Positions 2-45,345 of a stretch of DNA of 64,000 nucleotides are shown here, in pieces. Numbering within the stretch: position 1 is the first letter of the stretch; every line of letters begins with the position of its first letter. The DNA is taken from positions 9,461-73,460 of the forward strand of contig JAWKSM010000001.1 in assembly GCA_041389065.1 (NCBI GenBank), read 5' to 3'. The position numbers were made by a program, and so were the translations under genes. This DNA is from Minisyncoccota bacterium (GTDB lineage: Bacteria > Patescibacteriota > Minisyncoccia > Phycocordibacterales > CSBR16-119). Below the pieces are notes generated by a model. It was given only the letters and a program-made list of their open reading frames with translations. It made no database searches and was not told the DNA's origin.

Positions 2-625
2 CCAACCATGTTCATAGATCTCAACTATACCTTCACGCCATTCGCCATGGTCGAAGCAGGCAAAGCGAACCCAGAGGAAATCGTCGGCACTACGCCAGAT
101 TGTGCCCAGAAAGTGCACCCTGAGGGTGTCACCGTAATCCTTCTTCTTCCAGGTATCGGGGATGAACTCGGGGTTCTTTTTCAAGAACCCAAGCACGCAG
201 GCATTTAGGAGAGGTTTCTCGGCGATCTCCCTTTGAATGTCGTCCTTGCTAACCAACCTAAGTTTCGGTCGGTAAAGAACAACCTTCTTGCCATCGATAT
301 AGAGATCGTTGGGTGATCGTTTTTCGATCAACACTTTCCCTTCGCCAATATGGCTTTCAATCTTCATGCTAGAATTGAGCCACGGCGGCATCGCCTCGCT
401 ATCGAGATCGATGGTGGCAGAAAGCCACTCTGAGCGCTCATACTCCCTAACCCCCACGATCTCGTGTGAGCCTTTAACCAATCCCATCAGATCCTCCTTG
501 CGGATTTGATGAAAACGGTCAATGACGGGCTTGAAACTACCAAACCATCCGAGCCACTTCTTCAGGAGCTCGAGAGAAGATGCAAGGTTTTCACCTAACA
601 TCTCAACGACTTGTGTGTAAGCCAT
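2..625 (-). CDS. Hypothetical protein, N-terminal 208 codons. The ORF continues past the left window edge and is compositionally foreign.
   Basis: Hand translation of the minus strand from the ATG at 625-623 gives 208 sense codons with no stop down to position 2 (MAYTQVVEMLGENLASS...GEWREGIVEIYEHGW). It is absent from the supplied track because it has no in-window stop. It is visibly GC-richer than the flanking AT-rich DNA. A consensus promoter lies at 737-764. Confidence 0.6.
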   Translation of the reverse strand, partial: MAYTQVVEMLGENLASSLELLKKWLGWFGSFKPVIDRFHQIRKEDLMGLVKGSHEIVGVREYERSEWLSATIDLDSEAMPPWLNSSMKIESHIGEGKVLIEKRSPNDLYIDGKKVVLYRPKLRLVSKDDIQREIAEKPLLNACVLGFLKKNPEFIPDTWKKKDYGDTLRVHFLGTIWRSADDFLWVRFACFDHGEWREGIVEIYEHGW

Positions 626-736: not shown

Positions 737-764
737 ATTATAGCATATTCATTATTTTTGTCAA
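737..764 (-). promoter_or_regulatory. Sigma70-like promoter, TTGACA-16-TATAAT
   Basis: Minus strand reads TTGACAAAAATAATGAATATGCTATAAT (-35 at 764-759, -10 at 742-737). It lies about 110 nt upstream of the ATG at 625. A 12-bp hairpin (about 661-700) sits in the predicted 5' UTR. Confidence 0.5.
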
Positions 765-785
765 TACACGCCCAGTAACCACTTC

Positions 786-982
786 CGACCGTTTTAAATA
801 TTGCGACGCAAAAATAATAGTATTTTGCCTTAGAAAATGATGCTGTTTGAGCCAGAAGAAGAAGTGTATATACACTTCTTCTTCTGGCGAGTTCATCATT
901 TTCTTGGCTCAAAATCTATTATTTTAAGCAATATTTAATTAGGTCTTGAATTTTTGTTACTTTTGCTTCAAGACAAAAGTAA
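786..982 (-). repeat. TCAAACAG-loop structured element, copy 1 (full length)
   Basis: Minus-strand order: 5' AT hairpin TTACTTTTG..CAAAAGTAA (982-957), then CAAAAATTCAAGAC, then the long hairpin at 925-811. The hairpin core is GAAAATGATG-AACTC-GCCAGAAGAAGAAGTG-TATATA-CACTTCTTCTTCTGGC-TCAAACAG-CATCATTTTC (903-833). A tail, GCGTCGCAATATTTAAAAC, follows. Confidence 0.7.
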
Positions 983-1015: not shown

Positions 1016-3748
1016 TTAGAATTTCTCAAATTTCTCCATCACCTCCCCCTCTACTTCATCTCTCGGCCGACCAAATTTCATATATGAAAGTTCTTTTATC
1101 GGATCAACTATCGAATTATTTCCTTGTGGCCAGTTGTCGGTTTTCATACTAAAAGGTTTTGCTGGCTGTCCGCCCATAATCATCGCCATATACGCGTTTC
1201 GGTTATCGAGCTTGATAATATCGGAAACAGTGAAAATTGGTTCAACTCTTTTTTGTAAAGCTTCTGCATCTTCGGCACTAATTCTGAAAATCGCCATCGA
1301 ACCCACGTTACCCAAAACAGCACTTTTAATATTGTCGGGAAGCTGAGCCAAATATTGATGTGCCACATTTAAAGACAGCTTATACTTTCTAGCTTCTGAA
1401 AGGATTGAAGTTATTGAAGGTGTGACAACGTTTTGGAATTCGTCGATATAAAGATAGAAAGGTGAAAAATTTGTTCCAACAGAATCTGCTCGAGATAGCG
1501 CTGCCATTTGAAGCTTACCGACGAGAATAAGTCCGATAAGGTTTGAGTTTATCTCACCAAGTCTTCCCTTTGAAAGGTTCACAAGCAAGATCTTTTTATT
1601 GTCCATAATATCCCGGAAATTAAATGCCGACTTTTCTTGAGTAACTATCGGTCTCATAATTTCGTTTGAGATAAATGTATCAAATTTTGAAGTGATATAC
1701 GGAACGAAGTTTTCAAGACCTTGTTCTCCTTGGGTTGCTTCAGCATTTTTCCAAAATTGCTTTACGAGCGGGTTGTTTGTTTTTGCCAACTTCATATCGC
1801 GGAATTTTTTGTCTGACAAAACACGGCTAATTTCAAGCAAGGTCGAACCTGTTTCTGGATCGTCCATAACCAAGTTTGCACTGTTTTTGAAATATTGTTC
1901 GAACATTGGACCACCGGCTGTTTTCATATCAAAAAGCTGATTGAAAATTCCCATAAGTTCGTTTATCACAAAAGTTTTTTGCTCTGGTCTTGAAATGTCA
2001 TATTCGAGCATGTTTAGTCCCATTGGGCGCGGCGTATATGCTGGATCAAAGTAAATAACATCATCGATTCTTTCTTTTGGAATATTCGCGAGAATCGTTT
2101 CAATATCGTTTCCATGAGGATCGATATAACAAACACCATTTCCAGCTTGGATATCTTGAATAATCATATTCATCATAATTCCAGTTTTTCCTGTTCCTGT
2201 TTGACCGATAATATAAAGGTGTCGAAGCCTGTCTTCTGGCTGCATGAAAACTGGAGTTTCTTTTCCTCTGTAAATATTTGTTCCAAGACGAAGTCCTTCG
2301 AGTGTCATGTTTGTCGGAGCTGGCGCTTGTCCAGCTTTTGATTCTTTCAATTCTGGAGTTGTTGATTCGCTTATTGGGAAGTGAAAAACAGTCGAAAGCT
2401 CTTCGAGGTTTAGTGACATCGATTCTTTTTCGTTTGGAACTCTGAAAGAAAAATTATGCAAAAATACTGGCAAAGAAGATTCTTTTACTCTTTCAAATTT
2501 AAAACTATTTGATTTTGATTTATTAAACTGCTCGAAAGAAGATTCAATATCAGAAACAATATCTTGTGCTCTGTTTTTAGAATGTGCCGAAGCAATAATT
2601 CTGATACTTGTATTCACGACCGTGCTTTTTAGCTTTTTGTTTATAGCTTCAATAGCATCTGTGTCAGCTTCTTTTCTCTCTTCTTCTTTTTCAACTTTTT
2701 TCGGATTGAAAATTCCAACTGCAAAGTTTTTCAGTTCTTTTTTTACGACAGCGTATTCGTCGATAGCATCTTTAAGCTTTTCACCCTTTTTAACTTTTTC
2801 TAAAATCCCAGAAAACTTTTTTATCAAACTCTCACCCATTGGCACCACGACAATCTGAATCGCCGCACCTTCTGAATCGAGCCCGAGTTTTGAAAATGCA
2901 TTTAAAACAGCGTTCATCGGGTCGTGACCAAGCTCATCGTGAGTTGCTATTGGAAAAACATCTTCTTCACGAAGAGTTGCATATGAAGCGACGATTTCAG
3001 AGTCCTGACTAAAAATATTGTAATCATCTGTAACTTCGTTTATCTTTGCGCTGTGATAGAAAGCTAGGATTTGCTTTTCGAGTAATTCCTTTTTTTCTCT
3101 TGGAACAGAAACGTAAATAACCAAGTCGTTTGAATTGTAAGCATTTGCGATTTCAAGAGTGTAATATTGTTTGTCTTTATTGTGTTCACCGCGAGAGATT
3201 GCCTGCATTCCAGAAAGAAACTGCTTCATTCCTGTAATAAAATCAATGAAAGTTCTTTTTTCTTCTTTTACATTTCCTGGCAAAGTAATTTCAAAAAGCG
3301 CAAGATTTAGAGATTTAAATTCTGGTGAAGTCTCTTTTAATCCTGGAATATTTCCACTTGCATGCAAAAATTGAACCAAAAATCTATGAACGTCGTCTTC
3401 GATATGTGGGTTGTTCATTCGAGAAACCAGGTCGAGTGTGTTTTTTATCCCGTGTTCTAAAAGATATCCGTAGATTTCAGACATTTTGTCATCGTGCTCT
3501 TCTGGTTTTAATTTCAAAACAACTTGCTCTGCGTGTTTTTCTTCTGCTTTGTATCCTTTATTTAAAATCTCTTCGCTGTCTAACATTTCATATGCAGAAA
3601 CAGCTTCTCTTGAAACTTCTTCGCGTGATTTTGAAATATTTGATTCACGAAGTTCTTTTTCTCTCTCTTCGATATGTTTACGCAAAAAATCTATCTCCTC
3701 TTCTGGAGAATTAAACTTCGGAGTTTCTTTAAAATATGTACCTTCCAT
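1016..3748 (-). CDS. VirD4/TraD-like type IV coupling-protein-family ATPase with a long N-terminal extension
   Basis: 910-aa ORF. The C-terminal half carries Walker A IIGQTGTGKTG, Walker B YLYIDEFQNV and a downstream LNVAHQYLAQL motif typical of T4CP / TraG-D_C ATPases. No obvious N-terminal TM helices. Confidence 0.75.
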   Translation of the reverse strand: MEGTYFKETPKFNSPEEEIDFLRKHIEEREKELRESNISKSREEVSREAVSAYEMLDSEEILNKGYKAEEKHAEQVVLKLKPEEHDDKMSEIYGYLLEHGIKNTLDLVSRMNNPHIEDDVHRFLVQFLHASGNIPGLKETSPEFKSLNLALFEITLPGNVKEEKRTFIDFITGMKQFLSGMQAISRGEHNKDKQYYTLEIANAYNSNDLVIYVSVPREKKELLEKQILAFYHSAKINEVTDDYNIFSQDSEIVASYATLREEDVFPIATHDELGHDPMNAVLNAFSKLGLDSEGAAIQIVVVPMGESLIKKFSGILEKVKKGEKLKDAIDEYAVVKKELKNFAVGIFNPKKVEKEEERKEADTDAIEAINKKLKSTVVNTSIRIIASAHSKNRAQDIVSDIESSFEQFNKSKSNSFKFERVKESSLPVFLHNFSFRVPNEKESMSLNLEELSTVFHFPISESTTPELKESKAGQAPAPTNMTLEGLRLGTNIYRGKETPVFMQPEDRLRHLYIIGQTGTGKTGIMMNMIIQDIQAGNGVCYIDPHGNDIETILANIPKERIDDVIYFDPAYTPRPMGLNMLEYDISRPEQKTFVINELMGIFNQLFDMKTAGGPMFEQYFKNSANLVMDDPETGSTLLEISRVLSDKKFRDMKLAKTNNPLVKQFWKNAEATQGEQGLENFVPYITSKFDTFISNEIMRPIVTQEKSAFNFRDIMDNKKILLVNLSKGRLGEINSNLIGLILVGKLQMAALSRADSVGTNFSPFYLYIDEFQNVVTPSITSILSEARKYKLSLNVAHQYLAQLPDNIKSAVLGNVGSMAIFRISAEDAEALQKRVEPIFTVSDIIKLDNRNAYMAMIMGGQPAKPFSMKTDNWPQGNNSIVDPIKELSYMKFGRPRDEVEGEVMEKFEKF

Positions 3749-10785: not shown

Positions 10786-10925
10786 CTTACTTTTTCATTA
10801 CCAAAAAGTAAGCAAAAGGCTAGACCCACACATACCACCTAAAAATAATAGATTTTAAGCTAAGAAAATGATGAACTCGCCCCGCAAAGAAGTGTTTAAT
10901 ACACTTCTTTGCGGGGCTCAAACAG
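10786..10925 (+). repeat. TCAAACAG-loop structured element, copy 2 (5' part only, interrupted)
   Basis: CTTACTTTTT..AAAAAGTAAG hairpin, CTAGACCCACAC motif, then AAAATAATAGATTTTAAGCTAAGAAAATGATG-AACTC-GCCCCGCAAAGAAGTGT-TTAA-TACACTTCTTTGCGGGGC-TCAAACAG. The 3' arm of the outer stem is missing, and Asd-like coding sequence starts at 10926. Confidence 0.7.
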
Positions 10926-11831
10926 GGTGGTTTCAATAGAGACCGGGTCAGAGTCTCTGGATCTTCTCGAAGGGGTGGGCTTACAACCGTTGGAGAACTC
11001 TTGAGCGAACCCCCAAACTTTATTTTGTCTGCCCTACCAGCCAAAGCTGCAAAGGAGATACTTCCTGAGTTTTCTGCAAGAGGCTCAATCGTTATCGATA
11101 AATCCGATGCATTCAGAATGCAGGAAGAGCCGGCTATTAAGTTGATCGTGCCTGAAGTAAATGGGCATTTACTGATAGGAGATGAAAGGATCGTTGCAAG
11201 TCCAAACTGCACAACCACACAACTTGTTGTTGCAATTAATCCCCTTCACAAGGAACTTAGGTTGTCCTCGCTTCACGTTACAACCTTTCAATCTGCAAGC
11301 GGGGCTGGGAAAGAAGGGTCTGAACAACTGCGCAAAGAGTCTCTGCGAATACCCGTTCCGAAAACTGAAATGGTTTTTCGACCACAGCTTTTCAGGAACG
11401 TGGTTCCAGTTTGCGGAAGTATCACAGGAAGCGGTGAAAGTACCGAGGAGCTAAAGATCAAAATGGAAACCAGAAAGATCATGGAGCTCCCCGACCTTCC
11501 GGTCTATGCAACATCGACAAGGGTTGCTGTTGAAAGATCGCACTCAATGTCTGTAGTTGCGAGATTTGAAAAGCCAACAACAGCAGCTTCTGTGATGGAA
11601 ATACTATCTCGAGAAGGTACTGGGGTTGAAATACCCTGTGACAACAGTGAGTATTTCACCGCCTTAGAAGCCTCTGGAGAAAACCTGGTCTATGTTAGCA
11701 GAATTCGCGTAGACAAAGATGATCCAAGAATTGTGAGCCTTTGGGTTGTTGCCGACAACCTAAGAAAAGGTGCGGCACTCAACGCTTGGCAAATAATGAA
11801 AATAATAATGAATCGCAAAGGGTGGTCCTAA
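10926..11831 (+). pseudogene. asd: Aspartate-semialdehyde dehydrogenase, 5'-truncated (no Rossmann GxxGxxG segment, no start codon)
   Basis: Translation shows Asd blocks: VSGSSRRGG, VIDKSDAFRM, LIVPEVN, active-site SPNCTTT, QSASGAG, VERSHS, ADNLRKGAALNA. Similarity continues upstream of the track's TTG start (11001) to about 10926 without any start codon. About 30 N-terminal residues are absent. GC is clearly higher than the host's. Confidence 0.8.
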
Positions 11832-11841
11832 CAGGACCACC
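11821..11841 (+). terminator. Hairpin spanning the asd stop codon
   Basis: GGTGGTCC-taaca-GGACCACC followed by CAATTTTATT. It probably travelled with the asd fragment. Confidence 0.4.
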
Positions 11842-15695: not shown

Positions 15696-15916
15696 GTCAC
15701 TTTTTTCTTAGCAAAAAAGTGACCAAAAAGCCAAGACGCAGAAAAATCTAGCTAAAAACACAGGCTTTTTGTTGAGAAAACTGTGAACTCGCTTTTAGCT
15801 CAAACAGCACAGCTTTTCTAGAACAAAAAGCCTGTGTTTTCTTTACGCTATATTTTAAGCGTCGAAAGATTTTAATTTAAAACGAAGCCCCGCACCTTAC
15901 GGCGCGGTCTCAAAAT
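15696..15916 (+). repeat. TCAAACAG-loop structured element, copy 3 (full length, short inner stem)
   Basis: GTCACTTTTTT..AAAAAAGTGAC hairpin, CAAAAAGCCAAGACGCAG, then the long hairpin AACACAGGCTTTTTGTTGAGAAAACTGTG-AACTC-GCT-ttt-AGC-TCAAACAG-CACAGCTTTTCTAGAACAAAAAGCCTGTGTT. The tail is ACGCTATATTTTAAGCGTCGAAAGATTTTAATTTAAAACG. A GCCCCGCACC..GGCGCGG hairpin then follows, followed by CTCAAAAT. Confidence 0.7.
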
Positions 15917-25451: not shown

Positions 25452-27293
25452 CTAGTTCAGAACAACCTTCACACTTTCGGTTTCTTGTTCACCGATAATG
25501 ATCAGGTTGTACACACCAGGCGATCCTTTTATGACCACCTGGCTACCACTCCTTTGCACCGAAGCTTCTCGACCGAGATGGTCGAAAGCTTGAATGCTTT
25601 GGAATTCACCCTTGATGTTAATCGCTTCACCCAGTCGAGCTGGGTTCGGATACACCAAGTAGCTGTCTGGTTTTTCAGGCCAGAAGCTGAAAGGTTTGAT
25701 GTTTGAAAAGTCATACGACCCGTCAAGGTCGACAGACTTCAGTCTGTAGAAGCTAAGCCCTTCAAGAGGACTCTCATCCACAAACTCATATTGGATCATC
25801 TGCTGGCTATTACGAGAAGCCTCGACAGACCCAACACTTTCAAACACCCTCCCGTCGACTGATCGCTCGACGTCGAAGTGACTACTTCCTTGCTCGCTGG
25901 CAGTCTGCCAAGTTACAAGCGCGGTTTCGTTTTCTCCTTCGACGTCAAACGAAGCAAGTTCGACAGGAAGAACCTGTCCACACGGCACAACCACAGGCTG
26001 GTAGGAGTCGAGCTCCACCAACGCTTCGGTCATTGTCGTGTTTGTAGTCGTTGGAACGTTTTGCACCTGGTTAAAGAATGCTGGGTAAGCGGTGAGCTCG
26101 ATACTCCCCGCCTCTTCACAAGAGCTAAGCACCAATCCTTGGCTTCCGACCGGCGTCACTATGGACCCAGTCGAAGAGTCTTTGTCTTGGTAACTCAGCA
26201 TTTGGAAGTAAGTGGATTCGATAATCCCCTTTCCCGGGGCGCCTCCACCTTCGTAAACGGTTTTGGTCCACGACGCACCCAAAGTGACTTGATCAACCTT
26301 AGACACGAACGAATACGACATGTCTGGGTCTGGCGACGAATTGATCGCTTGACCAGTCATGTAGATACTCGTTCCGTCGGTAGTTAGGTAACCACCATTG
26401 ACCGTCCAACCCGATGGCGCGAAGATGATGCTTGCGCTAAGCAGGTTCAGGCTGCCGTCAGTGCGGACAAGTCCCAAGTGCTGACTCGATGACCCTCTGT
26501 ATGAGAGAAGGAATCCACCTTGATATGGAACTGCGTCGCGCAGAAACTCATCAGCAGTGGACCCGATGGTTGTTTGCCTGTGGCATACACCCAGGTTATC
26601 AAACACCGTCACCGAAATGTCATACGGACCTCCCGATGTTGGATTGCTCCCGAAAAGGAAAATCGAATCCCCGGAAGCAAAAACTCGTTCAGCATGATGA
26701 CCACCGCTAAGCGATCTATCAACTGACTTCCACCACAGGATGTTTCCCGCAGCGTCGAGCTTGCCGATCATCTGGGTTCTCGTCGAGGACGATGTTCTCT
26801 TTGTCCCAGCAACGATTATCTCACCGCTAGGATTTTCAGAAACCGAAGTCAGAACTTCTGTCGTGTCTCGCGACACAATTGGAGTTCCCAAAACCTTCGC
26901 CCAAATAACGTCGCCAGATTGATTCAGTCTCATCGCCAACGCATCTTGCTGGTATTCGCCAACAATAACGATGTCTCCGTTCGAAGCCAGCAGCATGTCG
27001 TTGAAACGACACGTTGCCATAGCGATATCGCAGGAACTCACCGGAATATATACCAGAGTGTCCGAAAGGGTTTTGGCCCAAACAGTTCCTCCAGCATTGT
27101 GACGTGCCACGAAGGCGTTATCGAAACCGTCCCTGGTGTTGTAACCAGAAACGATGAAGTCTCCACTTACAGGAAGACTCACAATCCTTTGACCAACAAG
27201 AGCTTGCCCTGTGGTCGCCGGATCAAGATTGATCTGCTGAGCTGCCAACTCGAAAGTCAGGAGCCCAAAGGCGAAAACAAGGAAGTTTCTCAT
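25452..27293 (-). CDS. Secreted repeat protein with T9SS type-A C-terminal sorting domain (Por_Secre_tail-like)
   Basis: Start set at the ATG at 27293, giving signal peptide MRNFLVFAFGLLTFELAAQQ. The C-terminus VYPNPARLGEAINIKG...GVYNLIIIGEQETESVKVVLN matches the T9SS CTD pattern. It is preceded by the ELASF...W.T.SE...F.VERS.DG...YRLK..D.DG module common in Bacteroidota. GC and GC3 are clearly higher than the host's. Confidence 0.8.
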   Translation of the reverse strand: MRNFLVFAFGLLTFELAAQQINLDPATTGQALVGQRIVSLPVSGDFIVSGYNTRDGFDNAFVARHNAGGTVWAKTLSDTLVYIPVSSCDIAMATCRFNDMLLASNGDIVIVGEYQQDALAMRLNQSGDVIWAKVLGTPIVSRDTTEVLTSVSENPSGEIIVAGTKRTSSSTRTQMIGKLDAAGNILWWKSVDRSLSGGHHAERVFASGDSIFLFGSNPTSGGPYDISVTVFDNLGVCHRQTTIGSTADEFLRDAVPYQGGFLLSYRGSSSQHLGLVRTDGSLNLLSASIIFAPSGWTVNGGYLTTDGTSIYMTGQAINSSPDPDMSYSFVSKVDQVTLGASWTKTVYEGGGAPGKGIIESTYFQMLSYQDKDSSTGSIVTPVGSQGLVLSSCEEAGSIELTAYPAFFNQVQNVPTTTNTTMTEALVELDSYQPVVVPCGQVLPVELASFDVEGENETALVTWQTASEQGSSHFDVERSVDGRVFESVGSVEASRNSQQMIQYEFVDESPLEGLSFYRLKSVDLDGSYDFSNIKPFSFWPEKPDSYLVYPNPARLGEAINIKGEFQSIQAFDHLGREASVQRSGSQVVIKGSPGVYNLIIIGEQETESVKVVLN

Positions 27294-27364
27294 GGGTTTG
27301 TGTGTTTTATGTGTGAATGTTCGCAAAGTGCGAACGTGTCTTACAATGTACTTTCTCAGCCTCT

Positions 27365-27393
27365 TTTATACCATTTTTGACATAAAAAGTCAA
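27365..27393 (-). promoter_or_regulatory. Sigma70-like promoter, TTGACT-17-TATAAA
   Basis: Minus strand reads TTGACTTTTTATGTCAAAAATGGTATAAA, in the AT-rich spacer upstream of protein A. Confidence 0.4.
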
Positions 27394-27429
27394 GTGTATG
27401 CGTGGATTATAAATTAACCTAAAAAAAAC

Positions 27430-27458
27430 TTGATTTTACTGCTTTTATGTGTTATTAT
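27430..27458 (+). promoter_or_regulatory. Sigma70-like promoter, TTGATT-17-TATTAT
   Basis: TTGATTTTACTGCTTTTATGTGTTATTAT, 28 nt upstream of the ATG at 27487. Confidence 0.4.
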
Positions 27459-27486
27459 TTAGCCGAACAACAAACACCATCAAACG

Positions 27487-28641
27487 ATGAAACAGCTAAC
27501 GCTTCTCTTTGCTTTGATGGTCGCCACCGGCACCTTCAAAGCTTACGCTCAGGATGTCGTCTACACTTTCGAAGCCCCCTGCACGAACACACTTTGCCCT
27601 TCTGACCAATGCCACGGAGTTGGAGTTGCAACCCCAAGCACCCTTAACACAAGCGTTTTCGCTTCTGCAAGCGCGCTAAATCCATCACCCTCCCTAGGAA
27701 CAAGTAGTTCATTTTGTGGAACGGCCATGAATGGATTTGCTGCGGGAAACCCAAACAATCCGAACCGTGCTCGTTGGGCCCAGAACTGGACTAGCTCTAC
27801 TACTATAAACACGAATCACTATTTTGGATTCACTCTTGGAGCAGTTCAAAATGGATACATTTCCATATCAAGAGTGGATTTACAAGACAGTAGAAGTGGA
27901 TCTGGCCCACTAACAATCGAACTTCGTTCAAGTGCAGACAACTTTGCAACAACAATCTGGCAACAAACATTGCCAGACAACACTGGGTGGAGATCTTGGT
28001 CAATAACTACAGGACTACCGAGCTTCTACAACTCTCTGACTTTTAGAATCTATGCATACGCAAGCCAGACGACATCTGGCGCTGCATGGAGGATTGATAA
28101 CGTCAAAGTCTGGGCTTCGGTCACCAACCTCCCTATCGAGCTAATCTCTTTCACTGGAGAAAAGTTTGAACAGGATGTACGACTTCGTTGGAAAACAGCC
28201 AGCGAGCAAGACAACGAGCACTTCACTCTCTTTCGTTCACGGGATGCAATAGACGCAACATCCTGGGAAGAGATTGGAAGAGTTCCTGGAGCAGGAACAA
28301 GTCAGAGTCCTATCGACTACGAGTATGTAGATGAGTCACCGAACATCGGGACAAACTACTACCTTCTTCGTCAAACGGACTTTGATGGAACATTCACCAG
28401 TAGCAACATTGTTGCTGTCGAATTCCTAGCTTCAAAGGACTTCTCAGTGTTCCCAAATCCGACATCGCGTGGTAGCCCCGTCAGAACTTCCAAGAGAATC
28501 GACTTCATTTTCGATGATCTTGGTAAAATGACGAGGTTTGACCCGAACAACATCACACTTGAAGTGCCTGGGGTCTACACCCTGGTCCACCAAAGTGAAA
28601 ACGGTTTTTCGGAAACAATCCGACTAATCGTCACCCCCTAG
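27487..28641 (+). CDS. Secreted protein with T9SS type-A C-terminal sorting domain
   Basis: 384 aa; signal peptide MKQLTLLFALMVATGTFKAYAQD. Contains the same ELISF...RWKTASEQDNEHF...YYLLRQTDFDG module as protein A. The C-terminus is FPNPTSRG...GVYTLVHQSENGFSETIRLIVTP. Confidence 0.8.
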   Translation: MKQLTLLFALMVATGTFKAYAQDVVYTFEAPCTNTLCPSDQCHGVGVATPSTLNTSVFASASALNPSPSLGTSSSFCGTAMNGFAAGNPNNPNRARWAQNWTSSTTINTNHYFGFTLGAVQNGYISISRVDLQDSRSGSGPLTIELRSSADNFATTIWQQTLPDNTGWRSWSITTGLPSFYNSLTFRIYAYASQTTSGAAWRIDNVKVWASVTNLPIELISFTGEKFEQDVRLRWKTASEQDNEHFTLFRSRDAIDATSWEEIGRVPGAGTSQSPIDYEYVDESPNIGTNYYLLRQTDFDGTFTSSNIVAVEFLASKDFSVFPNPTSRGSPVRTSKRIDFIFDDLGKMTRFDPNNITLEVPGVYTLVHQSENGFSETIRLIVTP

Positions 28642-28651
28642 AAATTCTAGG

Positions 28652-28686
28652 AAGACCTTCGCCTCACGGCGAAGGTCTTTTCTTTT
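28652..28686 (+). terminator. Intrinsic terminator after protein B
   Basis: AAGACCTTCGCC-tcac-GGCGAAGGTCTT followed by TTCTTTTT. Confidence 0.65.
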
Positions 28687-28694
28687 TATTTATA

Positions 28695-28722
28695 TTGACA
28701 AAAAATATTTCTGTGATATTAT
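28695..28722 (+). promoter_or_regulatory. Sigma70-like promoter, TTGACA-16-TATTAT
   Basis: TTGACAAAAAATATTTCTGTGATATTAT, 39 nt upstream of the ATG at 28762. Confidence 0.45.
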
Positions 28723-28761
28723 TCAACCAAAACAAACCCCGTCCTTTAACAGAAACAGATC

Positions 28762-30465
28762 ATGAAAAAACTACTGACCATAATCATGACGCTTTGCGTC
28801 TGCTTTGTGTACGCGCAAGACCAGATCAGCTGGGTGCGTTTCCAGTGCGGCGATAGCAGCACGGTGAGATACATCTCACTCGAGGACCGCAAGACCATGT
28901 TCAAGGTGAACATGTCCTGGCCCGAGAATGAAACGCGAGAAGTGTTCCAACACTACAACGACAACCCCATTGGCGTGTCCATGGGGCAAATGCAGGGTGG
29001 TGAATACTTCATCACCCTGGATCACCCTGGTGATAGTATCAATCCAGTAATCGGATACCAGAGCATCTACACTGTCAGACTGGGAACCGCAAATGGGAAT
29101 CACACGGAAGACTGCAATGTCCGCACTGAACCAACACCAGTTATTCAAGCCACTATGAGCACCAGCCCGCTTTCGGGCGGCGGCTCACTCGTAACCATTA
29201 TTGGAAACTCACACACAGCAGACACTGTAGCGAGCAACCATAGTGGTTGGGGCTGGATAAGTAATAGCGAGCTACCATGTAGTCGCCACGAGATCTCCAT
29301 CATCACCGATGTGTTTTCTGAAGACGGCCTGGTGTTTTCGGACACGACGGTATGTGTTCCGGGTGTGCCAACAGACTTCTCTGCTGAGTTTGACTATACG
29401 GGTCCGTACACCATATTGTGCGCGGAAAGCCGAATGGAAAAACGAAGCATGGAAGTTCCTGCCGAATTTCCAACACGAGTTATTGTTCTCAGCAGTCAAA
29501 CGTGTCAGATGGCAGGGCAAGTTCCTCCGAGCATCGAGCTTTTGAGAACTTGTGAAGATGGCACTATCGGCACACCACCGACAACAGGAGACAGAGAGTT
29601 CCTCGTTCGATTCAATATCGATTGGCCGGGCGACGATGAGCAGAAACTCCTCTACTACACCGTCCCGAACAACAATACCGGACTACCGAATTTGGTGAGC
29701 AGTGGACAACTCTTCCATCGTGGGCAAAACTACATCGTGATTGAACACGATGATATTGACCCCGTTTCGGGAAGTGCATACTTCCAGGAATGGCACACCA
29801 AGCTGGCCTTCCGTTACGGTGAGGAGTTCATCTACAGTCAGCTTTTCATCGCGTCGACGGAACCCGCGCCAGTGCTCGAAGGATCGTGGCTCCCTGTAAG
29901 TGGAGACTCGGTGTCGTTCTCTTACCGAGAGCACACGGAACTATCCGAAGCGCTCGGCTGGGGATGGATTCTGGGCATATGTCCAGAATATGAGCTCATA
30001 CTCATCAAACGGGTGACCGATAGCGATGGAGAAACAGTGTTCACGGACACGGTCTTCCTCACTCCGGGAATACCTGTTGATGAAGAAGATGGCTTCCTTT
30101 ATACAGGCAACTCAACCGAGCTCTGCCTTGAACTCGAGATGCAACGCATTCACCTCGCTGATTCGGTTCACTTCGAGCCGCAAACAATCATAACGGTGGA
30201 TGGTGGATGCATTGGAAGCTCGACAGCGATTAGCGAAAGCGAAGGTGTTGCCGAGAACCAAACTCGAATCTTTCCAAACCCAACAACGGGGCGAGAAGTT
30301 CGGATACTCGGAGCCATACCTAGCTCGAAGTGGTCTGTCTTCAGTACATCAGGAAGCCTGGTGTTGACTGGAGCAGGTCAGATGATCGATGTTTCTACGC
30401 TGTCCTCTGGTGTTTACGTGGTGAACATTGAAGGCGGCGCCACTGTTCGGCTTGTCCGACAGTAG
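28762..30465 (+). CDS. Secreted protein with an internal ~240-aa duplication and a T9SS type-A C-terminal sorting domain
   Basis: 567 aa; signal peptide MKKLLTIIMTLCVCFVYAQD. The two halves share TEP(T/A)PV, GWGWI, VF(S/T)DT, PG(V/I)P and YTG blocks. The C-terminus is FPNPTTGREVRILG...GVYVVNIEGGATVRLVRQ. Confidence 0.8.
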   Translation: MKKLLTIIMTLCVCFVYAQDQISWVRFQCGDSSTVRYISLEDRKTMFKVNMSWPENETREVFQHYNDNPIGVSMGQMQGGEYFITLDHPGDSINPVIGYQSIYTVRLGTANGNHTEDCNVRTEPTPVIQATMSTSPLSGGGSLVTIIGNSHTADTVASNHSGWGWISNSELPCSRHEISIITDVFSEDGLVFSDTTVCVPGVPTDFSAEFDYTGPYTILCAESRMEKRSMEVPAEFPTRVIVLSSQTCQMAGQVPPSIELLRTCEDGTIGTPPTTGDREFLVRFNIDWPGDDEQKLLYYTVPNNNTGLPNLVSSGQLFHRGQNYIVIEHDDIDPVSGSAYFQEWHTKLAFRYGEEFIYSQLFIASTEPAPVLEGSWLPVSGDSVSFSYREHTELSEALGWGWILGICPEYELILIKRVTDSDGETVFTDTVFLTPGIPVDEEDGFLYTGNSTELCLELEMQRIHLADSVHFEPQTIITVDGGCIGSSTAISESEGVAENQTRIFPNPTTGREVRILGAIPSSKWSVFSTSGSLVLTGAGQMIDVSTLSSGVYVVNIEGGATVRLVRQ

Positions 30466-33383: not shown

Positions 33384-36263
33384 TTACCAAGAGATTCTAA
33401 TTCGTCCGTTTTGTGCTGTTCCTTGGTAAATGTTTTGTGTTGGGTCTGAACAAGTTCTTGGTGCTCCGTTTCCAAATCCAAGAGTTGTTGTTATTGATTC
33501 GCTAGCCAAGTTACATGGACCTGTTGCGCTACCGCTGACAGCAGCAGCACCTTCCTGACCTCGGTTGTAAGTTGAACTGTTTGCAGTAGTATATGTTCCT
33601 TCTGGATTGGCAACATTACCTGCTGTATACATCCATCCACCACCTTTTCCATATCTTAGAGGGATAGTCGTGTTAAATAGGTTTCCACCATAGCCACCCC
33701 ATCCTCCTTCTGCTAAGGCTGAACTTGATCCAGTCAATCTAGTAGTTCCTCCTCTTTCTCCAGGAACTGGAGATGATCCGCTAGTTCCGTTTGCACCCTT
33801 TGCCCCAACAGTGAATTGAAGAGTAGGATTTACAAGGTTTGTTCTAGATATATTTATCTTTTGATATTCTCCAGAACCACCCGCACCTGATTTGTTGTTT
33901 GAACCAGTATAAACTCCACCAGCACCTCCTCCTGCTCCCCAAAGTTCGATTGTGAAGTTTTCTACACCTGCTGGGATAACATTGTTAATTTGGAATGTAG
34001 AAAGTGAGTGTTGTCCAGGTGTATCGAATACAATTTCGCCAGCTTGACTTGTTGTTGGAAGTCCAGAGATTATTACATAACCACTTCCTCCACAACCACC
34101 GCGTCCACCTTTAAAGCTAAATGTGAAAGGTGACATGTTGTAGTATCCTCCGTAACCTCCTCCACCTCCTCCACCTCCATGTCTTGGAGAACCACAGTAT
34201 CCATTTTTACCAAGTCTGTCAGAATATGAATCTGTTCCTCCAGGAGTACCTCCACCTCCACGCGCACTTGTTTGAGATCCGTTTAAGTTAAGTCTAAGGT
34301 CTCCATTTGTGTCATATGACTCACCCCAGCCACCAATACCTCCGCAAGAAACACAAGATGGATTAGAGTTTGGTGTTGCACCTGATTGTCCGTTGAATCC
34401 CCAGTTATAAGCTCCGGTAGAGAGTGCAAGATTTGCATGAGTACCGATTGCAGGAAGACCGTTTATTAAACCTTGTCTAACTGATCCTCCAGGTCCACCA
34501 CCCAAACCTCCGTTAACTGTTGGACCAACTTGAGCTTCTGGTCCACTTGTTGGATCAAAGAATATTGCAGTGTTTCCTCCAGCCTGACCAAAATATGCAT
34601 TGTTATCAATATTAGTTCCTCCTCCAGAAGTCCATTCAGCACCACCTCCACCATTACCACCATAACCGATATTCCAAGTAAGAACATCTCCAGGAACAAC
34701 ATCTACGTCTTCTGTTGAACAATCTCCAGCTGCACCACCTCCACCACCTGAACCACCTGTTCCGATATTATTTGGAGATTGACCAAGATTAGGGTTTCCA
34801 GGAGCTCCGATTCCTCCACCCCCTCCACCTCCTCCAGCACCACAGTATTTGATAGTTACAGTACCGCTAAAGTTAAAGTTGTATTGAGATCCATTATCTT
34901 CTGAAGTAAACATTATTGTTCCATCACCTGCAGGACCACTTACTCCTATTGGAGTTGTTGTTCCCGGAACCGTTGGAGCATCTTCACCTGGAGTTCCAGA
35001 CGGTGGACACATCACAACTTTAAATGATCCTTCTATATAACAAAGATGTTTTACACTTCCGTTTACCCATTGACTGTAAGAAGCGCCATCAAGACCCTCT
35101 AGATACAAGTCACCACCTGTTCCGACATATGTATCTCCTTGAAGCATTGAAAGACCTTGATTTGAAAAAACACCAATACCTTCTGTTGGGTTTGCTAGTT
35201 CCAAAGAACCAATATTTAACCCTGGAGCAAACGGTATTAAGTTATAAGTAAGATTCTTGTTCCATTTAAATGTTCCATCTATGTCCATAGACATCGGGAT
35301 TCTTCCTGGACCAGCGTCTAAAAGAGATGGGTTTGAAATCGGCCCCTTAAACTTAACAGCAGATGAGTTGAAAGTTACATTTTGAGAAGGAGTAAACTGA
35401 CCAAAAACAGTATTACCAGAAGAAACTGTTAAATTATCTGTATTAGAATCACCTAGAACTATATTTGTAGAACTTATGTCTGTAAGATTAGAAATTATCT
35501 TTGTTATATCAGAACTAATTTGAGTAGCACCCAAATTATTTCTACCTATATAACTAGTTGTAGCATCTACTTGGAAAATATTATTTGTAACTATTGTTCT
35601 TGGTATTGCTGGAGAAGATATTGTATCATGTTTTATCCGGTCAGTCGCCTCCCACTGATTTGTCGCACCGTTGTACCACATTGTTTGACCAGCCGTTCCT
35701 GGTGGAAGACCTGGGCCACCTGGATTAACTGTTACGGGTCCTGTTACCCAACATTGACAATCAACATCCCATATAAGAGTATCTCCATCCTCTCCACCAT
35801 CAGGTATTCCTGGCCCCCAAGTTACATTTCCATCTGTATCTGCAGATTTCAAAACTGAACCAGCTTGTGGTTGCGCACTACCAGAAGTAGGTTTGAATCG
35901 TAGTCTACCGAAAATATTTAATTCTGAAGGAGAGTTTTGTAGTCCAACGTTTAACATATTTGTAAAATATGAAGGAACGTAAGACATGAAGAAGTTATTT
36001 TGACCATTTGCAGAGTCGTCGGCAATAAATGGCACGTTAACCGCAGCTCCACCTCTAACATTCAAACCTCCCCCAAGACCAATTCCACCTTGTTTAAATT
36101 GATCTTGAGCACCGATGTTTATCGGAGATGGTGTATTTGTTCCTATAGTCGGAGCCCCGGTTGGAGCAGTCCAGTTGTTTTCTGTTTGCGCAAATAGACT
36201 TGCTGGCACAGAGAATACTGCAACAAACATTAGTAATAAAAATTTTGATAAAAATGTACGCAT
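33384..36263 (-). CDS. Giant secreted glycine-rich protein (959 aa) with repeated GAGGGGG beta-modules
   Basis: Start set at the ATG at 36263 (signal peptide MRTFLSKFLLLMFVAVFSVPASLFAQ). Repeated blocks include TVTIKYCGAGGGGGGGGIGAPG, FTIELWGAGGGAGGVYTG..GAGGSGEY, GGRGGCGGSGYVIISG and GRIRISW. These resemble the bacterial glycine-rich domain family (Pfam Gly_rich, ALK-type GRD). This is recalled from memory and was not searched. Confidence 0.7.
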   Translation of the reverse strand: MRTFLSKFLLLMFVAVFSVPASLFAQTENNWTAPTGAPTIGTNTPSPINIGAQDQFKQGGIGLGGGLNVRGGAAVNVPFIADDSANGQNNFFMSYVPSYFTNMLNVGLQNSPSELNIFGRLRFKPTSGSAQPQAGSVLKSADTDGNVTWGPGIPDGGEDGDTLIWDVDCQCWVTGPVTVNPGGPGLPPGTAGQTMWYNGATNQWEATDRIKHDTISSPAIPRTIVTNNIFQVDATTSYIGRNNLGATQISSDITKIISNLTDISSTNIVLGDSNTDNLTVSSGNTVFGQFTPSQNVTFNSSAVKFKGPISNPSLLDAGPGRIPMSMDIDGTFKWNKNLTYNLIPFAPGLNIGSLELANPTEGIGVFSNQGLSMLQGDTYVGTGGDLYLEGLDGASYSQWVNGSVKHLCYIEGSFKVVMCPPSGTPGEDAPTVPGTTTPIGVSGPAGDGTIMFTSEDNGSQYNFNFSGTVTIKYCGAGGGGGGGGIGAPGNPNLGQSPNNIGTGGSGGGGGAAGDCSTEDVDVVPGDVLTWNIGYGGNGGGGAEWTSGGGTNIDNNAYFGQAGGNTAIFFDPTSGPEAQVGPTVNGGLGGGPGGSVRQGLINGLPAIGTHANLALSTGAYNWGFNGQSGATPNSNPSCVSCGGIGGWGESYDTNGDLRLNLNGSQTSARGGGGTPGGTDSYSDRLGKNGYCGSPRHGGGGGGGGYGGYYNMSPFTFSFKGGRGGCGGSGYVIISGLPTTSQAGEIVFDTPGQHSLSTFQINNVIPAGVENFTIELWGAGGGAGGVYTGSNNKSGAGGSGEYQKINISRTNLVNPTLQFTVGAKGANGTSGSSPVPGERGGTTRLTGSSSALAEGGWGGYGGNLFNTTIPLRYGKGGGWMYTAGNVANPEGTYTTANSSTYNRGQEGAAAVSGSATGPCNLASESITTTLGFGNGAPRTCSDPTQNIYQGTAQNGRIRISW

Positions 36264-36373
36264 GATATTAATAATAAATTTATAAATGCTTCTTATATAA
36301 TAACATTTTTGTATTTGTAAATTGACACTAAACATTTACATTGTGGAAAACTTTTAAAATTTTTTACAAAACA

Positions 36374-43642: not shown

Positions 43643-43955
43643 TTACTTTTTTCATGATAAAAAAGTAACAAAAAATCTAGACCCACACTTCACACTTAAA
43701 ATACCATCTTTCTTTTCCCTTGAAGGAAAAGAAACAAAAGTTCAAGACGCAGAAAAATATATCTAAAATTTATTCAATTTTGGCTAAGAAAGTGATGAAC
43801 TCGCCCGAAAAAGAAGTGTCTATACACTTCTTTTTCGGGCTCAAACAGCATCACTTTCTAAAGCAAATTAAATAAATTTTCGGACGATATATTTTAAGCG
43901 TCAAGGGATTTTAATTAAAAAGAATAAGGGCGACCCCGGTGAGGGTCGCCCTTTT
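43643..43955 (+). repeat. TCAAACAG-loop structured element, copy 4 (full length, duplicated 5' module, own terminator)
   Basis: TTACTTTTTT..AAAAAAGTAA hairpin; CTAGACCCACAC motif; a second hairpin TTCTTTTCC..GGAAAAGAA; TTCAAGACGCAG. The long hairpin follows: AAAATTTATTCAATTTTGGCTAAGAAAGTGATG-AACTC-GCCCGAAAAAGAAGTG-TCTATA-CACTTCTTTTTCGGGC-TCAAACAG-CATCACTTTCTAAAGCAAATTAAATAAATTTT. The tail is GACGATATATTTTAAGCGTCAAGGGATTTTAATTAAAAAG. It ends in GGGCGACCC..GGGTCGCCC plus TTTT (43928-43955). Confidence 0.75.
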
Positions 43956-44099
43956 AGTTCTGCACCCATGGTGCAAGGAGCTTGGTTTACTCCTTTTTGT
44001 GGCTATGCCAAGTGTGGTTCCTTAGGTTACGGATTTTCATTCCGACCCAGGCACGTGGCGTGGTTTAGCTCATCGTTCGCCACGAGACGATGAACTTCT

Positions 44100-44609
44100 T
44101 CAACACAGCAGCGTAAGCGTCCAGCCAGGGCGCACCATCACCCACACCATCCGGTGCGAATGCAGGGCGGCCGCGGTGCTCACGTTCACATGGTTGAAGC
44201 TGTTGTCGCCGTTCATGATCATGCAGCTGCACGATCGTTCAGGCTCCAGCACCACCATGCGGCCGCTGCTCACGTTCACCAACTTGTCGAAGTTCAGGTC
44301 CAGGTTCGTACACATATTGAAGTTCTTCGTGTGGTCGCTCGAGGCGAAACCGGTGTTGCCGACCGTATGATCGGATCGGTGCACCACGGTCTCCTGGCCG
44401 CTGACTTGCGCGAATGCGCTGCAATACTTGTTGGTGATGCTGGCCAGGAAGATCCCTTGCTCGGGCATGATCTGGTCGGCCGATGCGCTGCTGTTGTCGA
44501 CTACTTCGATGTTGTCCACCTTCGGCCCCGTGTCGGGTGCCGAGAAGGCGGGTTTGACACTGAACGCCAAGCCGGCGATCAGTGCCATGATTCCAATGTG
44601 CATCTTCAT
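44100..44609 (-). CDS. Hypothetical secreted protein (169 aa) in a very GC-rich foreign segment
   Basis: Signal peptide MKMHIGIMALIAGLAFSVKPAFSA and strongly G/C-ending codons. The overlapping ORFs on both strands look like high-GC artefacts. The promoter at 44661-44688 points into it. Confidence 0.6.
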   Translation of the reverse strand: MKMHIGIMALIAGLAFSVKPAFSAPDTGPKVDNIEVVDNSSASADQIMPEQGIFLASITNKYCSAFAQVSGQETVVHRSDHTVGNTGFASSDHTKNFNMCTNLDLNFDKLVNVSSGRMVVLEPERSCSCMIMNGDNSFNHVNVSTAAALHSHRMVWVMVRPGWTLTLLC

Positions 44610-44636
44610 GGTATGAAGGGATTTGTTGCGTCGGAT

Positions 44637-44649
44637 TGTTTGAGCCCGA
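44637..44649 (-). repeat. Inverted partial copy of the element core (TCGGGCTCAAACA)
   Basis: Minus strand reads GAGTCGGGCTCAAACAATCCGAC. The 13 nt TCGGGCTCAAACA are identical to the copy 4 core at 43835-43847 but in opposite orientation, on the far side of the GC-rich segment. Confidence 0.55.
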
Positions 44650-44660
44650 CTCTGGGAGGA

Positions 44661-44688
44661 AGTATAGCATATTATAAAAACTTGTCAA
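44661..44688 (-). promoter_or_regulatory. Sigma70-like promoter, TTGACA-16-TATACT
   Basis: Minus strand reads TTGACAAGTTTTTATAATATGCTATACT. It shares TTGACAA and AATATGCTATA, at the same spacing, with the promoter at 737-764. Confidence 0.45.
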
Positions 44689-44754
44689 GCATTTTATTTT
44701 ATGGTATAGTCAAAAACGTATAAAACCATTATTTATCAACATATTTTAAATACC

Positions 44755-45345
44755 ATGTTAATACCAACAGTAATCGAAAAAACACATAACGGCGAACGAG
44801 CATACGATATTTATTCTCGCCTTCTAAAGGAGAGAATCGTCTTTCTTGGAATGGGAGTTGAAGAAAATTCATCGAGTAATGTAATTGCACAGCTTCTTTT
44901 TTTAGAGTCAGAAGATCCTAAAAAAGATATTTATCTTTATATAAACTCACCAGGAGGAAACGTAAAGGATGGTCTTGCAATAATAGACACAATGAATCAC
45001 ATAAAACCAGATGTGGCGACTGTGTGTGTCGGGATGGCAGCTTCAATGGGCGCAGTAATTCTTTCAGCTGGTGCAAAAGGTAAAAGATTTATACTGCCAA
45101 ACGCCGAGGTTATGATTCACCAACCATTAGGTGGAGTTGAAGGTCAAGCTTCTGATATTGCTATTACTGCGGAAAGAATTATAAAAACAAAAGCAAAACT
45201 TAATAGAATTTTGGCAGAAAATACTGGTCAGAAAATAGAAAAAGTTGAAAAAGATGGAGACCGAGATTATTGGATGGATGCAAAAGACGCTCTAAAATAC
45301 GGAATCGTGGACAAAATAATGGAAAAACCAAAATCTAAGAAATAA
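44755..45345 (+). CDS. clpP: ATP-dependent Clp protease proteolytic subunit
   Basis: 196 aa; [19 protein letters not shown], catalytic [11 protein letters not shown] and MIHQPLGG blocks. Confidence 0.97.

Follow-up and report, generated by a model that had tools for sequence, protein, structure and literature searches.

A mosaic GC-rich gene for a predicted secreted protein, resident between tig and clpP in AT-rich genomes of Paceibacterota

How does a single transcription unit come to be far richer in G and C than the genome that carries it? The question is raised by a 64-kb stretch of an AT-rich genome of a Minisyncoccota bacterium (contig JAWKSM010000001.1, positions 9,461 to 73,460; about 35% G+C, below GC), which is referred to here as the window. 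A short GC-rich segment lies there between two genes identified by Pfam as trigger factor (tig) and ClpP. It contains an open reading frame (ORF) with the NCBI tag R3B39_00330, here named gene X. A first-pass annotation of the window took X for foreign cargo, bracketed by inverted copies of the core of a repeated element and placed behind a portable promoter. The segment is real and unusual, but the captured foreign cassette reading fails. The explanation that we favour on balance is that X is a resident, recombination-shuffled gene of a secreted protein, held GC-rich in AT-rich genomes.

The composition of the segment is as that annotation described it. Among 128 bins of 500 nucleotides (nt), the bin at 44001-44500 has the highest GC (0.578 vs. 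0.528 for the runner-up). The ORF itself has GC 0.586, with GC1/2/3 = 0.51/0.42/0.835 at the three codon positions and strong 3-nt periodicity; GC3 of the host genes of the window is 0.16-0.38. The N-terminus, MKMHIGIMALIAGLAFSVKPAFS|AP, reads by eye as a signal peptide of the Sec type. Thus an ORF of 169 amino acids (aa) with G/C-ending codons is confirmed as a real gene of anomalous composition, encoding a protein that is apparently secreted.

44100..44609, minus strand: coding sequence (CDS) of gene X, 169 aa; GC3 0.835, in-frame gaps, homologs
44541-44609, minus strand: predicted signal peptide of X, aa 1-23, read from the sequence

Residency and coding status of gene X

We compared the locus with related Paceibacterota contigs (L-numbered below) that were retrieved either via X or via an identical ClpP. 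The gene order T4SS_pilin / PG_binding_1 / clpP(-) / X(+) / long-hairpin element / tig(-) is retained in 10/10 resolved contexts, namely the window and L001, L002, L005, L007, L009, L011, L018, L019 and L020. All four contigs encoding a ClpP identical to that of the window carry X, as does every locus retrieved by either route. In all 14 copies for which DNA was at hand, X has GC 0.55-0.60 and GC3 0.70-0.85, with flanks of GC 0.31-0.38. Foreign or mobile cargo is not expected to occupy the same clpP-X-tig slot in all resolved relatives, and the presence of X in each tig-clpP spacer so compared argues against a recent insertion. Since the family is lineage-specific and always GC-rich, the high GC is its normal state, an outcome that the first-pass annotation itself had named as refuting its reading. 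Thus X is resident in one clade of Paceibacterota and is not a recent import. The genes beside it form a cluster resembling a type IV secretion system (T4SS), with VirB4/TraG, PrgI, a pilin and a peptidoglycan (PG)-binding protein.

In L006 and L010 the clpP-X block is reversed and adjoins the nusA-ppa side, and both independent contigs stop within X. This indicates that the tig..clpP segment is inverted in one lineage. In L012 (960-1744) rpoB, not tig, follows X and the element, which reflects either a rearrangement or an assembly jump via the repeated element.

In a codon-blind nucleotide alignment of whole transcription units, the gap runs within the CDS are multiples of three in 163/163 cases; those in the untranslated regions (UTRs) split 53/39/49 by length class. 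X is protein-coding, because every gap run of the CDS is in frame. The conserved motifs are APDTGPKVDN, GQETVxHRSDH and ERSCSCMIMNG, plus a C-terminal cysteine, and in the HRSDH block the variation falls mainly at third codon positions. The N-terminus MKxxxxSMGLLAxxAFSPQPAFS|APDTGP is kept across about 25 members (the n/h/c regions and the AxA-like site were judged by eye), and these members, highly divergent otherwise, share the signal-peptide-like start together with the GQETVxHRSDH and RSC motifs. The protein would be secreted via Sec, leaving about 145 aa after the predicted cleavage.

The family is small. A first search of 5.8 billion proteins yielded 10 relatives, a profile search of 1.84e9 representatives 21, and a second profile search of 5.8e9 proteins 24. 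No member was found in phage, plasmid and IMG/VR collections. Comparison of X and of the family alignment with Pfam, NCBIfam, PHROGs and PDB profiles gave nothing credible; a match to 2a3m (E = 0.016) and a CUB-repeat protein, P0021, were both judged spurious. X matches no Rfam family at the gathering threshold, and the E-value mode returns weak hairpin-like matches alone; in the whole window there is no tRNA by ARAGORN and no Rfam family at gathering score. A literature search found no published work on GC-rich hypervariable genes in Patescibacteria. X represents a new, narrowly distributed family of hypervariable, apparently secreted proteins, shuffled by recombination, with a GC-rich transcript.

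In two contigs (L024 3-593, L025 311-874) the gene callers took an ORF antisense to X (187-196 aa, with the GC peak at codon position 1). A gene with high GC3 such as X thus sets an annotation trap, and callers sometimes choose its antisense frame. The most conserved DNA block of X, 44211-44240 (encoding ERSCSCMIMN), is dense in palindromes (CGATCG, TGCAGCTGCA, ATGATCAT) that could be a recombination anchor or restriction-type sites.

Mosaic alleles and retention of GC

Between these genomes ClpP is 89-99% identical and X 30-84%. The dN/dS ratio, about 0.01-0.06 in clpP, is 0.58-0.90 in X, and X alleles differ about equally at all three codon positions (e.g. 0.31/0.32/0.37). This is consistent with diversifying or very relaxed selection, and diversifying selection may be the cause.

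A table of sliding identity resolves the alleles into mosaics of blocks that are either about 100% or 24-57% identical. The window and L005 agree completely in columns 240-400, at 45-55% in the next 80, then at 89-100%, and at 24-43% in the C-terminus and the 3'UTR. Against L012 the 5'UTR hairpin is 40% identical, and everything from column 560 through the terminator 100%. Against L013 the first block is 28-75% and the middle 90-100% identical. The main variable block in the middle of the gene is 45-57% identical to the window in L005, L012 and L016, 90-95% in L013, and the adjoining blocks are 89-100% identical. Two different alleles, L012 and L016, come from one sample.

44290..44369, minus strand: main variable mid-block of X, in this allele TGFASSDHTKNFNMCTNLDLNF; swapped as a unit between alleles
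44400..44449, minus strand: short exchange tract of about 37 nt; L024 equals the window on both sides and is of the L013 type inside

The second of these tracts is the shortest. The clpP gene of L024 is 98.6% identical to that of the window at the nucleotide level, and its X is identical except for one patch. Over about 37 nt, with a 3-nt indel among the differences, it has the sequence of the alleles of L013, L014, L025 and L026. A chimera is unlikely here, because the patch is shorter than the assembly k-mer of 141 implied by the contig name. Exchange tracts range from about 37 nt to several hundred nt, and the same block types recur, differently combined, across independent samples and assemblers. 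The pattern points to shuffling of X alleles by homologous recombination in short and long tracts. A blastn-short search with the X unit found no second X-like copy in the window, and the genomes of three relatives matched by the scan have one X locus each; thus the exchange seems to proceed between genomes and not from silent cassettes.

The same alleles retain their GC over large evolutionary distances. The synonymous divergence of the flanking clpP and tig genes between lineages is 0.9-2.6, that is, saturated, and GC3 of X is still at least 0.70. GC at four-fold degenerate sites is 0.76 in X, 0.18 in clpP and 0.14 in tig; these sites differ in 21% of comparisons in X, 42% in clpP and 44% in tig. 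Denoting G or C by S and A or T by W, the rare third-position variants of X comprise 19 S>W, one W>S and 13 S>S changes. Mutation input in X is thus directed towards AT, like that of the remaining genome, and there is an excess of changes that leave GC unaltered. A two-state estimate (assuming that GC3 tends to about 0.22 at equilibrium and that each lineage has gathered 0.6-1.0 substitutions per synonymous site) predicts that a neutral X starting from GC3 0.85 should drop to about 0.3-0.4; all 14 copies have at least 0.70. The GC-rich domain extends from the start of the transcript to the terminator, and the 5'UTR hairpin and the 3'UTR are GC-rich too. As neutral decay should have erased a GC3 of about 0.8, some force, most likely a fixation bias, must retain G and C over the whole transcribed unit.

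This force could be selection on the DNA or on the stability or structure of the mRNA, GC-biased repair of the frequent recombination heteroduplexes, or continual influx from a GC-rich pool not yet sampled. The fold of the whole X transcript has a z-score of -5.3. For the CDS the scores are -3.6 to -3.7 in three alleles, those of three further alleles are -0.5 to -1.7, and clpP has -0.5. The GC skew of X is 0.017, and its coding strand has only three GGG runs as possible G4 motifs.

Control region, hairpin element and a second GC-rich gene

The first-pass annotation pointed to the likeness between the X promoter and a promoter near the left edge of the window. Indeed, these are the only two matches to TTGACA-N11-15-TGNTAWAMT in the 64 kb, where 0.04 are expected. 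The strong promoter type thus stands in front of two unrelated GC-rich genes. However, its portable placement is not borne out for X, whose promoter belongs to the control region of clpP. The features upstream and downstream of the X coding sequence are as follows.

44682..44710, plus strand: divergent clpP promoter, TTGTCA-17-TATAGT with TG, from a promoter scan; back to back with the X promoter over the X -35 box
44661..44688, minus strand: X promoter, TTGACAAGTTTTTATAATATGCTATACT; 11/12 consensus positions with TG, nearly invariant in 14 aligned loci
44683-44688 and 44661-44669, minus strand: -35 box TTGACA and extended -10 box TGCTATACT of the X promoter, 16-nt spacer, from the promoter scan
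44630..44650, minus strand: 5'UTR hairpin of type A, GTCGGGCTCAAACAATCCGAC; 6-bp stem and 9-nt loop, holding a 13-mer at 44637-44649
44610..44629, minus strand: A/C-rich leader GCAACAAATCCCTTCATACC, unstructured and ending at the ATG; no Shine-Dalgarno box
43956..44099, minus strand: GC-rich structured 3'UTR of type A, with a hairpin right after the stop codon and a GGAATGAAAATCC hairpin, from the whole-transcript fold
43926..43953, minus strand: intrinsic terminator of X, a bidirectional hairpin with a 12-bp stem, 8 GC pairs and a T-tail

The -35 hexamer of X (CTTGACAAG, a palindrome) doubles as the -35 box of the divergent clpP promoter, whose GACTATAnCAT block is conserved in all loci. The overlap with this conserved promoter makes the X promoter an integral part of the region that controls a core gene, and the shared palindromic -35 box accounts for the strong conservation of the spacer. 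A few bases downstream of the -10 box is the 5'UTR hairpin. At least four unrelated, interchangeable types of hairpin occupy this position, and 7/7 tested sequences fold. Besides type A these are GGTCAGGCATTCGGTCTGATC in L001 (with the near-identical GATCAGGCATTCAGTCTGATC in L011), CAAGTAGGCAATGTCGCTTACTTG in L012 and L013, and a fourth type in L006, L008 and L010. A AAACCAAATCC-like A/C-rich leader before the ATG is conserved across the alleles. No Shine-Dalgarno boxes were found upstream of genes in the window; the lack of one in X is uninformative, because no gene of this genome has one. The 3'UTR is swapped as a module jointly with the C-terminus. By its architecture the transcript, predicted to run from about 44653 to 43926, would be a stable and highly expressed mRNA.

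The supposed bracket consists of the 13-mer TCGGGCTCAAACA, which is indeed found exactly and in inverted orientation at 43835-43847 (plus strand) and 44637-44649 (minus strand). It is not expected by chance: the window contains three matches, one of them with a single mismatch (844-856, minus strand), vs. 0.09 expected. The left-hand site belongs to a repeated element that forms a long hairpin of about 180 nt. Its asymmetric internal loop, AACTCG / GCTCAAACAG, is conserved and its apical stem varies; compensatory changes affect 29/51 pairs of the hairpin. This element has no match in Rfam. A search with a covariance model yields four copies in the window.

778-957, minus strand: element copy 1
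10811-10925, plus strand: element copy 2, right arm missing
15723-15873, plus strand: element copy 3
43734..43912, plus strand: element copy 4, covariance-model score 196.8 bits

With the same model, a copy is found between X and tig in every X locus that reaches that far, and another in L022 (1630-1809) upstream of a homolog of the left-edge gene described below. The element thus belongs stably to the X locus and does not bracket X. The conserved core of the element is only the 9-mer GCTCAAACA, which occurs five times in the window (the four cores and the X site) vs. 0.76 expected; the additional TCGG of the 13-mer matches the apical stem of copy 4, which differs between copies and lineages. 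At the 5'UTR of X the window and L005 have the 13-mer exactly and L014, L007 and L002 nearly so, and an unrelated hairpin sits in its place in L001, L006/8/10, L011 and L012/13. As unrelated hairpins swap at one position, this site is a 5' module rather than a terminal repeat, and the 13-mer, which covers stem and loop of one of several swappable 5'UTR hairpins, is a short motif shared with the element.

No hallmark of a mobile element was observed. There are no GTTRRRY or RYYYAAC cores on either strand at 43900-44760 and no target-site duplication, the longest direct k-mer common to the two boundaries of X being 6 nt. The Pfam families listed for window ORFs of at least 120 aa, in one of the scans 25 of 32, include no integrase, transposase or reverse transcriptase (RT).

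The left-edge gene had been described as a foreign ORF. It is indeed GC-rich and has the same promoter type, but it is actually a member of a variable-protein family of diversity-generating retroelements (DGRs).

2-625, minus strand: DGR-type ORF P0033, 219 aa, NCBI tag R3B39_00080; six relatives
737-764, minus strand: its promoter TTGACAAAAATAATGAATATGCTATAAT, a TTGACA-N11-15-TGNTAWAMT match

In L021 (2244-4794) a P0033 homolog is accompanied by a variable repeat (VR, 2788-2908), a template repeat (TR, 3282-3402), an Avd-like ORF and an RT of the RVT_1 family, and every difference between the VR and the TR is at a template adenine; hence the assignment of the left-edge ORF. The TR and RT for the window's copy would be expected to lie left of the window. 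The P0033 family has a whole-gene GC of 0.54 and GC3 of 0.68-0.71 in contigs of GC 0.33-0.40, with the promoter CTTGACAAAAAGGTATTAAATATGCTATAAT and a 5'UTR hairpin. Two unrelated hypervariable families, X and P0033, thus have GC richness, promoter type and a 5' hairpin in common. One tentative possibility, to which we give limited credence, is that a locus-specific process keeps hypervariable transcripts (X and the unrelated DGR targets) at GC3 of about 0.7-0.85 vs. about 0.2 elsewhere; strong GC-biased repair at a recombination hotspot and transcript-templated write-back are candidate processes. If so, there would be a class of GC-rich variable genes, and this would be the most extreme non-mutational maintenance of GC known in bacteria.

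Three other regions of the window deviate in GC. An N-terminally truncated fragment of aspartate-semialdehyde dehydrogenase (Asd; 10926-11840, GC 0.455) directly follows the core of element copy 2, CTCAAACAG, which suggests foreign DNA inserted at the element core. A GC-rich island (25452-30465, GC 0.47-0.52) amid core genes contains three ORFs, two of them with no Pfam match; the ORF at 28762-30465 has a Por_Secre_tail sorting domain of the type IX secretion system and is preceded by TATTGACAAAAAATATTTCTGTGATATTAT (28693-28722). This island is probably acquired DNA. Finally, a 983-aa Gly_rich_2 protein is encoded at 33384-36335 on the minus strand; its GC3 is only 0.20, and thus the local rise of GC at 33500-35000 is due to amino acid composition, namely GGX-type repeats.

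Alternative explanations, known systems and significance

The favoured reading implies the following course of events. Transcription of X would start at an extended -10 promoter of the sigma-70 type, close to consensus, whose -35 region also serves the clpP promoter; the mRNA would be protected by the 5' hairpin, the 3' hairpins and the strong terminator, and translated, like all genes here, with no Shine-Dalgarno box. The product would be exported by Sec, and the mature protein of about 145 aa would be exposed outside the cell. Its diversity would be reshuffled by homologous recombination between co-occurring strains and species, with exchange tracts anchored at short conserved blocks and at the flanks (the clpP promoter and the long-hairpin element), and a fixation bias would hold the whole unit at about 58% GC against AT-biased mutation in genomes of about 35% GC.

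Several observations weigh against it. AlphaFold2 gives no confident fold for X with alignments of 10 and 26 sequences (predicted local distance difference test, pLDDT, 40.7 and 47.6), and dN/dS near 1 would equally suit a little-constrained protein. The excess of mRNA folding varies inconsistently from allele to allele (z from -0.5 to -3.7) and is absent in L007 and L008. Highly expressed core genes (ribosomal proteins, EF-Tu) are AT-rich, and therefore high expression alone does not require high GC. To our knowledge, an effect of GC-biased conversion as large as this has not been described in bacteria. Most X alleles come from short metagenomic contigs, and some mosaics may be assembly chimeras. 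Finally, the loci were gathered through X, so that members of the clade lacking X would escape notice.

The last but one of these points could be extended to the mosaics in general: X would be real, and the mosaicism mostly path switching of the assembler between strains at conserved blocks. Many alleles are indeed on contigs of 0.7-1.8 kb, some contigs end inside X, and L012 links X to rpoB through the repeated element. However, block types recur in new combinations in independent samples and with different assemblers, the L024 patch is too short for the k-mer, and long contigs (104-174 kb) bear distinct alleles; we regard this explanation as rather improbable. Repeated import of whole or partial X units from an unsampled GC-rich host, plasmid or phage, possibly via the GCTCAAACA core, is also unlikely, though it deserves slightly more weight. 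In its favour, the GC-rich domain and the replaceable unit have exactly the same limits, the 5'UTR hairpin and the terminator, blocks of about 100% identity are shared by genomes whose clpP synonymous divergence (dS) is at least 0.3, and four-fold sites of X are less diverged than those of the flanking genes; moreover, GCTCAAACA is found both at the 5' junction of X and at the junction of copy 2 and the Asd fragment. On the other hand, with 24 proteins detected in 5.8e9 and none in the phage, plasmid and viral sets, no family member was found outside the clpP-tig context of Paceibacterota, GCTCAAACA is missing from most 5'UTR types, and the listed families include no recombinase. The original proposal of a foreign cassette mobilised or captured by the element, with the inverted cores as a bracket and a portable promoter, we consider highly improbable. 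Its merits are the exact 13-mer on both sides of X in excess of expectation, the GC-rich DNA adjoining 3/4 of the element copies in the window, the truncated Asd fragment beginning right after CTCAAACAG at copy 2, and the same promoter type before the left-edge GC-rich ORF. These are outweighed by the constant slot and constant GC richness of X in relatives, by the overlap of its promoter with that of clpP, and by the nature of the 13-mer side, a replaceable 5'UTR hairpin where only 9/13 nt come from the conserved element core; nor is there a target-site duplication, an attC-type core or, among the families listed, a recombinase.

Diversification by an RT, with the whole X transcript copied and written back by a DGR-like or other enzyme, is suggested by the other gene with this promoter (2-625, minus strand), which is in a GC-rich DGR variable-protein family, by the coincidence of the GC-rich domain with the transcript, and by the frequent AAC codons of X. 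However, there is no TR-like copy of X in the window, where the clean VR/TR pair of the other family in L021 serves as positive control; no RT is found among the listed families of the window or in the 10 kb flanking X on each side in L005 and L007, and the allelic differences include indels and are not confined to adenines. This mechanism thus seems very unlikely, and X as a DGR target was rejected for the window, given the lack of a TR-like copy and variation that is not adenine-specific. Least probable of all, to the point of being hardly tenable, is a structured non-coding RNA with an incidental ORF. Strong folding of the whole transcript (z = -5.3) and of three CDS copies (-3.6 to -3.7), the equal distribution of substitutions over codon positions and the absence of a confident AlphaFold fold would agree with it, but the ORF and its signal peptide are kept in about 25 divergent members, the 3-nt periodicity is strong, Rfam gives no match, and L007 and L008 show no folding excess. 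The in-frame indels of the CDS (163/163) led us to reject this candidate.

Among known systems, the closest analogues of the resident, recombining gene X would seem to be mosaic surface-protein genes and the GC-rich vls locus of Borrelia. The latter, vlsE with the vls cassettes, is much richer in GC than the very AT-rich genome around it, has a strong GC skew and draws on silent cassettes arrayed next to it on the same replicon. Like it, X is a hypervariable gene of a protein with predicted export, GC-rich in an AT-rich genome and subject to segmental replacement in short tracts, a trait of the vls/pilE type that is seen here as the single L013-type patch in L024. Unlike it, X has no second copy in the window and one locus per scanned relative, its skew is near zero, and its exchange appears to occur between genomes and not within one. 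The pneumococcal pspA gene and the Neisseria genes porB, tbpB and opa are mosaic through transformation and recombination and have the composition of their own genomes. X resembles them in its conserved flanks and anchors, its near-identical-or-divergent blocks and a divergence far above that of housekeeping neighbours, but differs in having GC3 of about 0.8 in genomes of GC3 about 0.23.

The likeness to DGR targets is in hypervariability, restriction to a lineage, and the promoter type, 5'UTR hairpin and whole-gene GC richness seen in the P0033 family. However, X has no TR/VR pair in the window and no nearby RT, and its variation extends over the whole gene, includes indels and is not bound to adenines. 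Similarly to an integron cassette, X is a replaceable unit behind a fixed promoter with a structured 3' end; unlike cassettes, it has no attC-type core at 43900-44760, has its own terminator and always belongs to one gene family. No IntI or Phage_integrase was seen among the families listed for window ORFs of at least 120 aa or, by gene order, within about 10 kb around X in L005 and L007. X does not agree with a transposon with terminal inverted repeats or a miniature inverted-repeat element (MITE), as the inverted match is just 13 nt long and absent from many carriers of X, and no target-site duplication is present.

GC-biased gene conversion in bacteria was reportedly described by Lassalle et al. 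in 2015. The effects reported for bacterial GC-biased conversion amount to a few percent of GC3. X is similar in that it recombines, has GC3 above mutational equilibrium and has rare variants that are mostly S>W. However, the difference in X is about 0.6 GC3 and is limited to one transcript.

Bacteria of the candidate phyla radiation (CPR), or Patescibacteria, are believed to spend their lives attached to host cells, and little is known of the molecules of this contact. The T4SS-like neighbourhood of X and its diversification suggest that the protein acts where the cell meets its host, phages or neighbours. Small, apparently secreted, hypervariable, shuffled, and placed behind a seemingly strong promoter beside a T4SS-like cluster, X makes a good candidate for a factor that faces the host or phages. 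The locus further offers a natural experiment on what besides mutation bias sets the GC content of bacteria: across synonymously saturated lineages, one transcript has GC3 of about 0.8, and its neighbours a few dozen bases away about 0.2.

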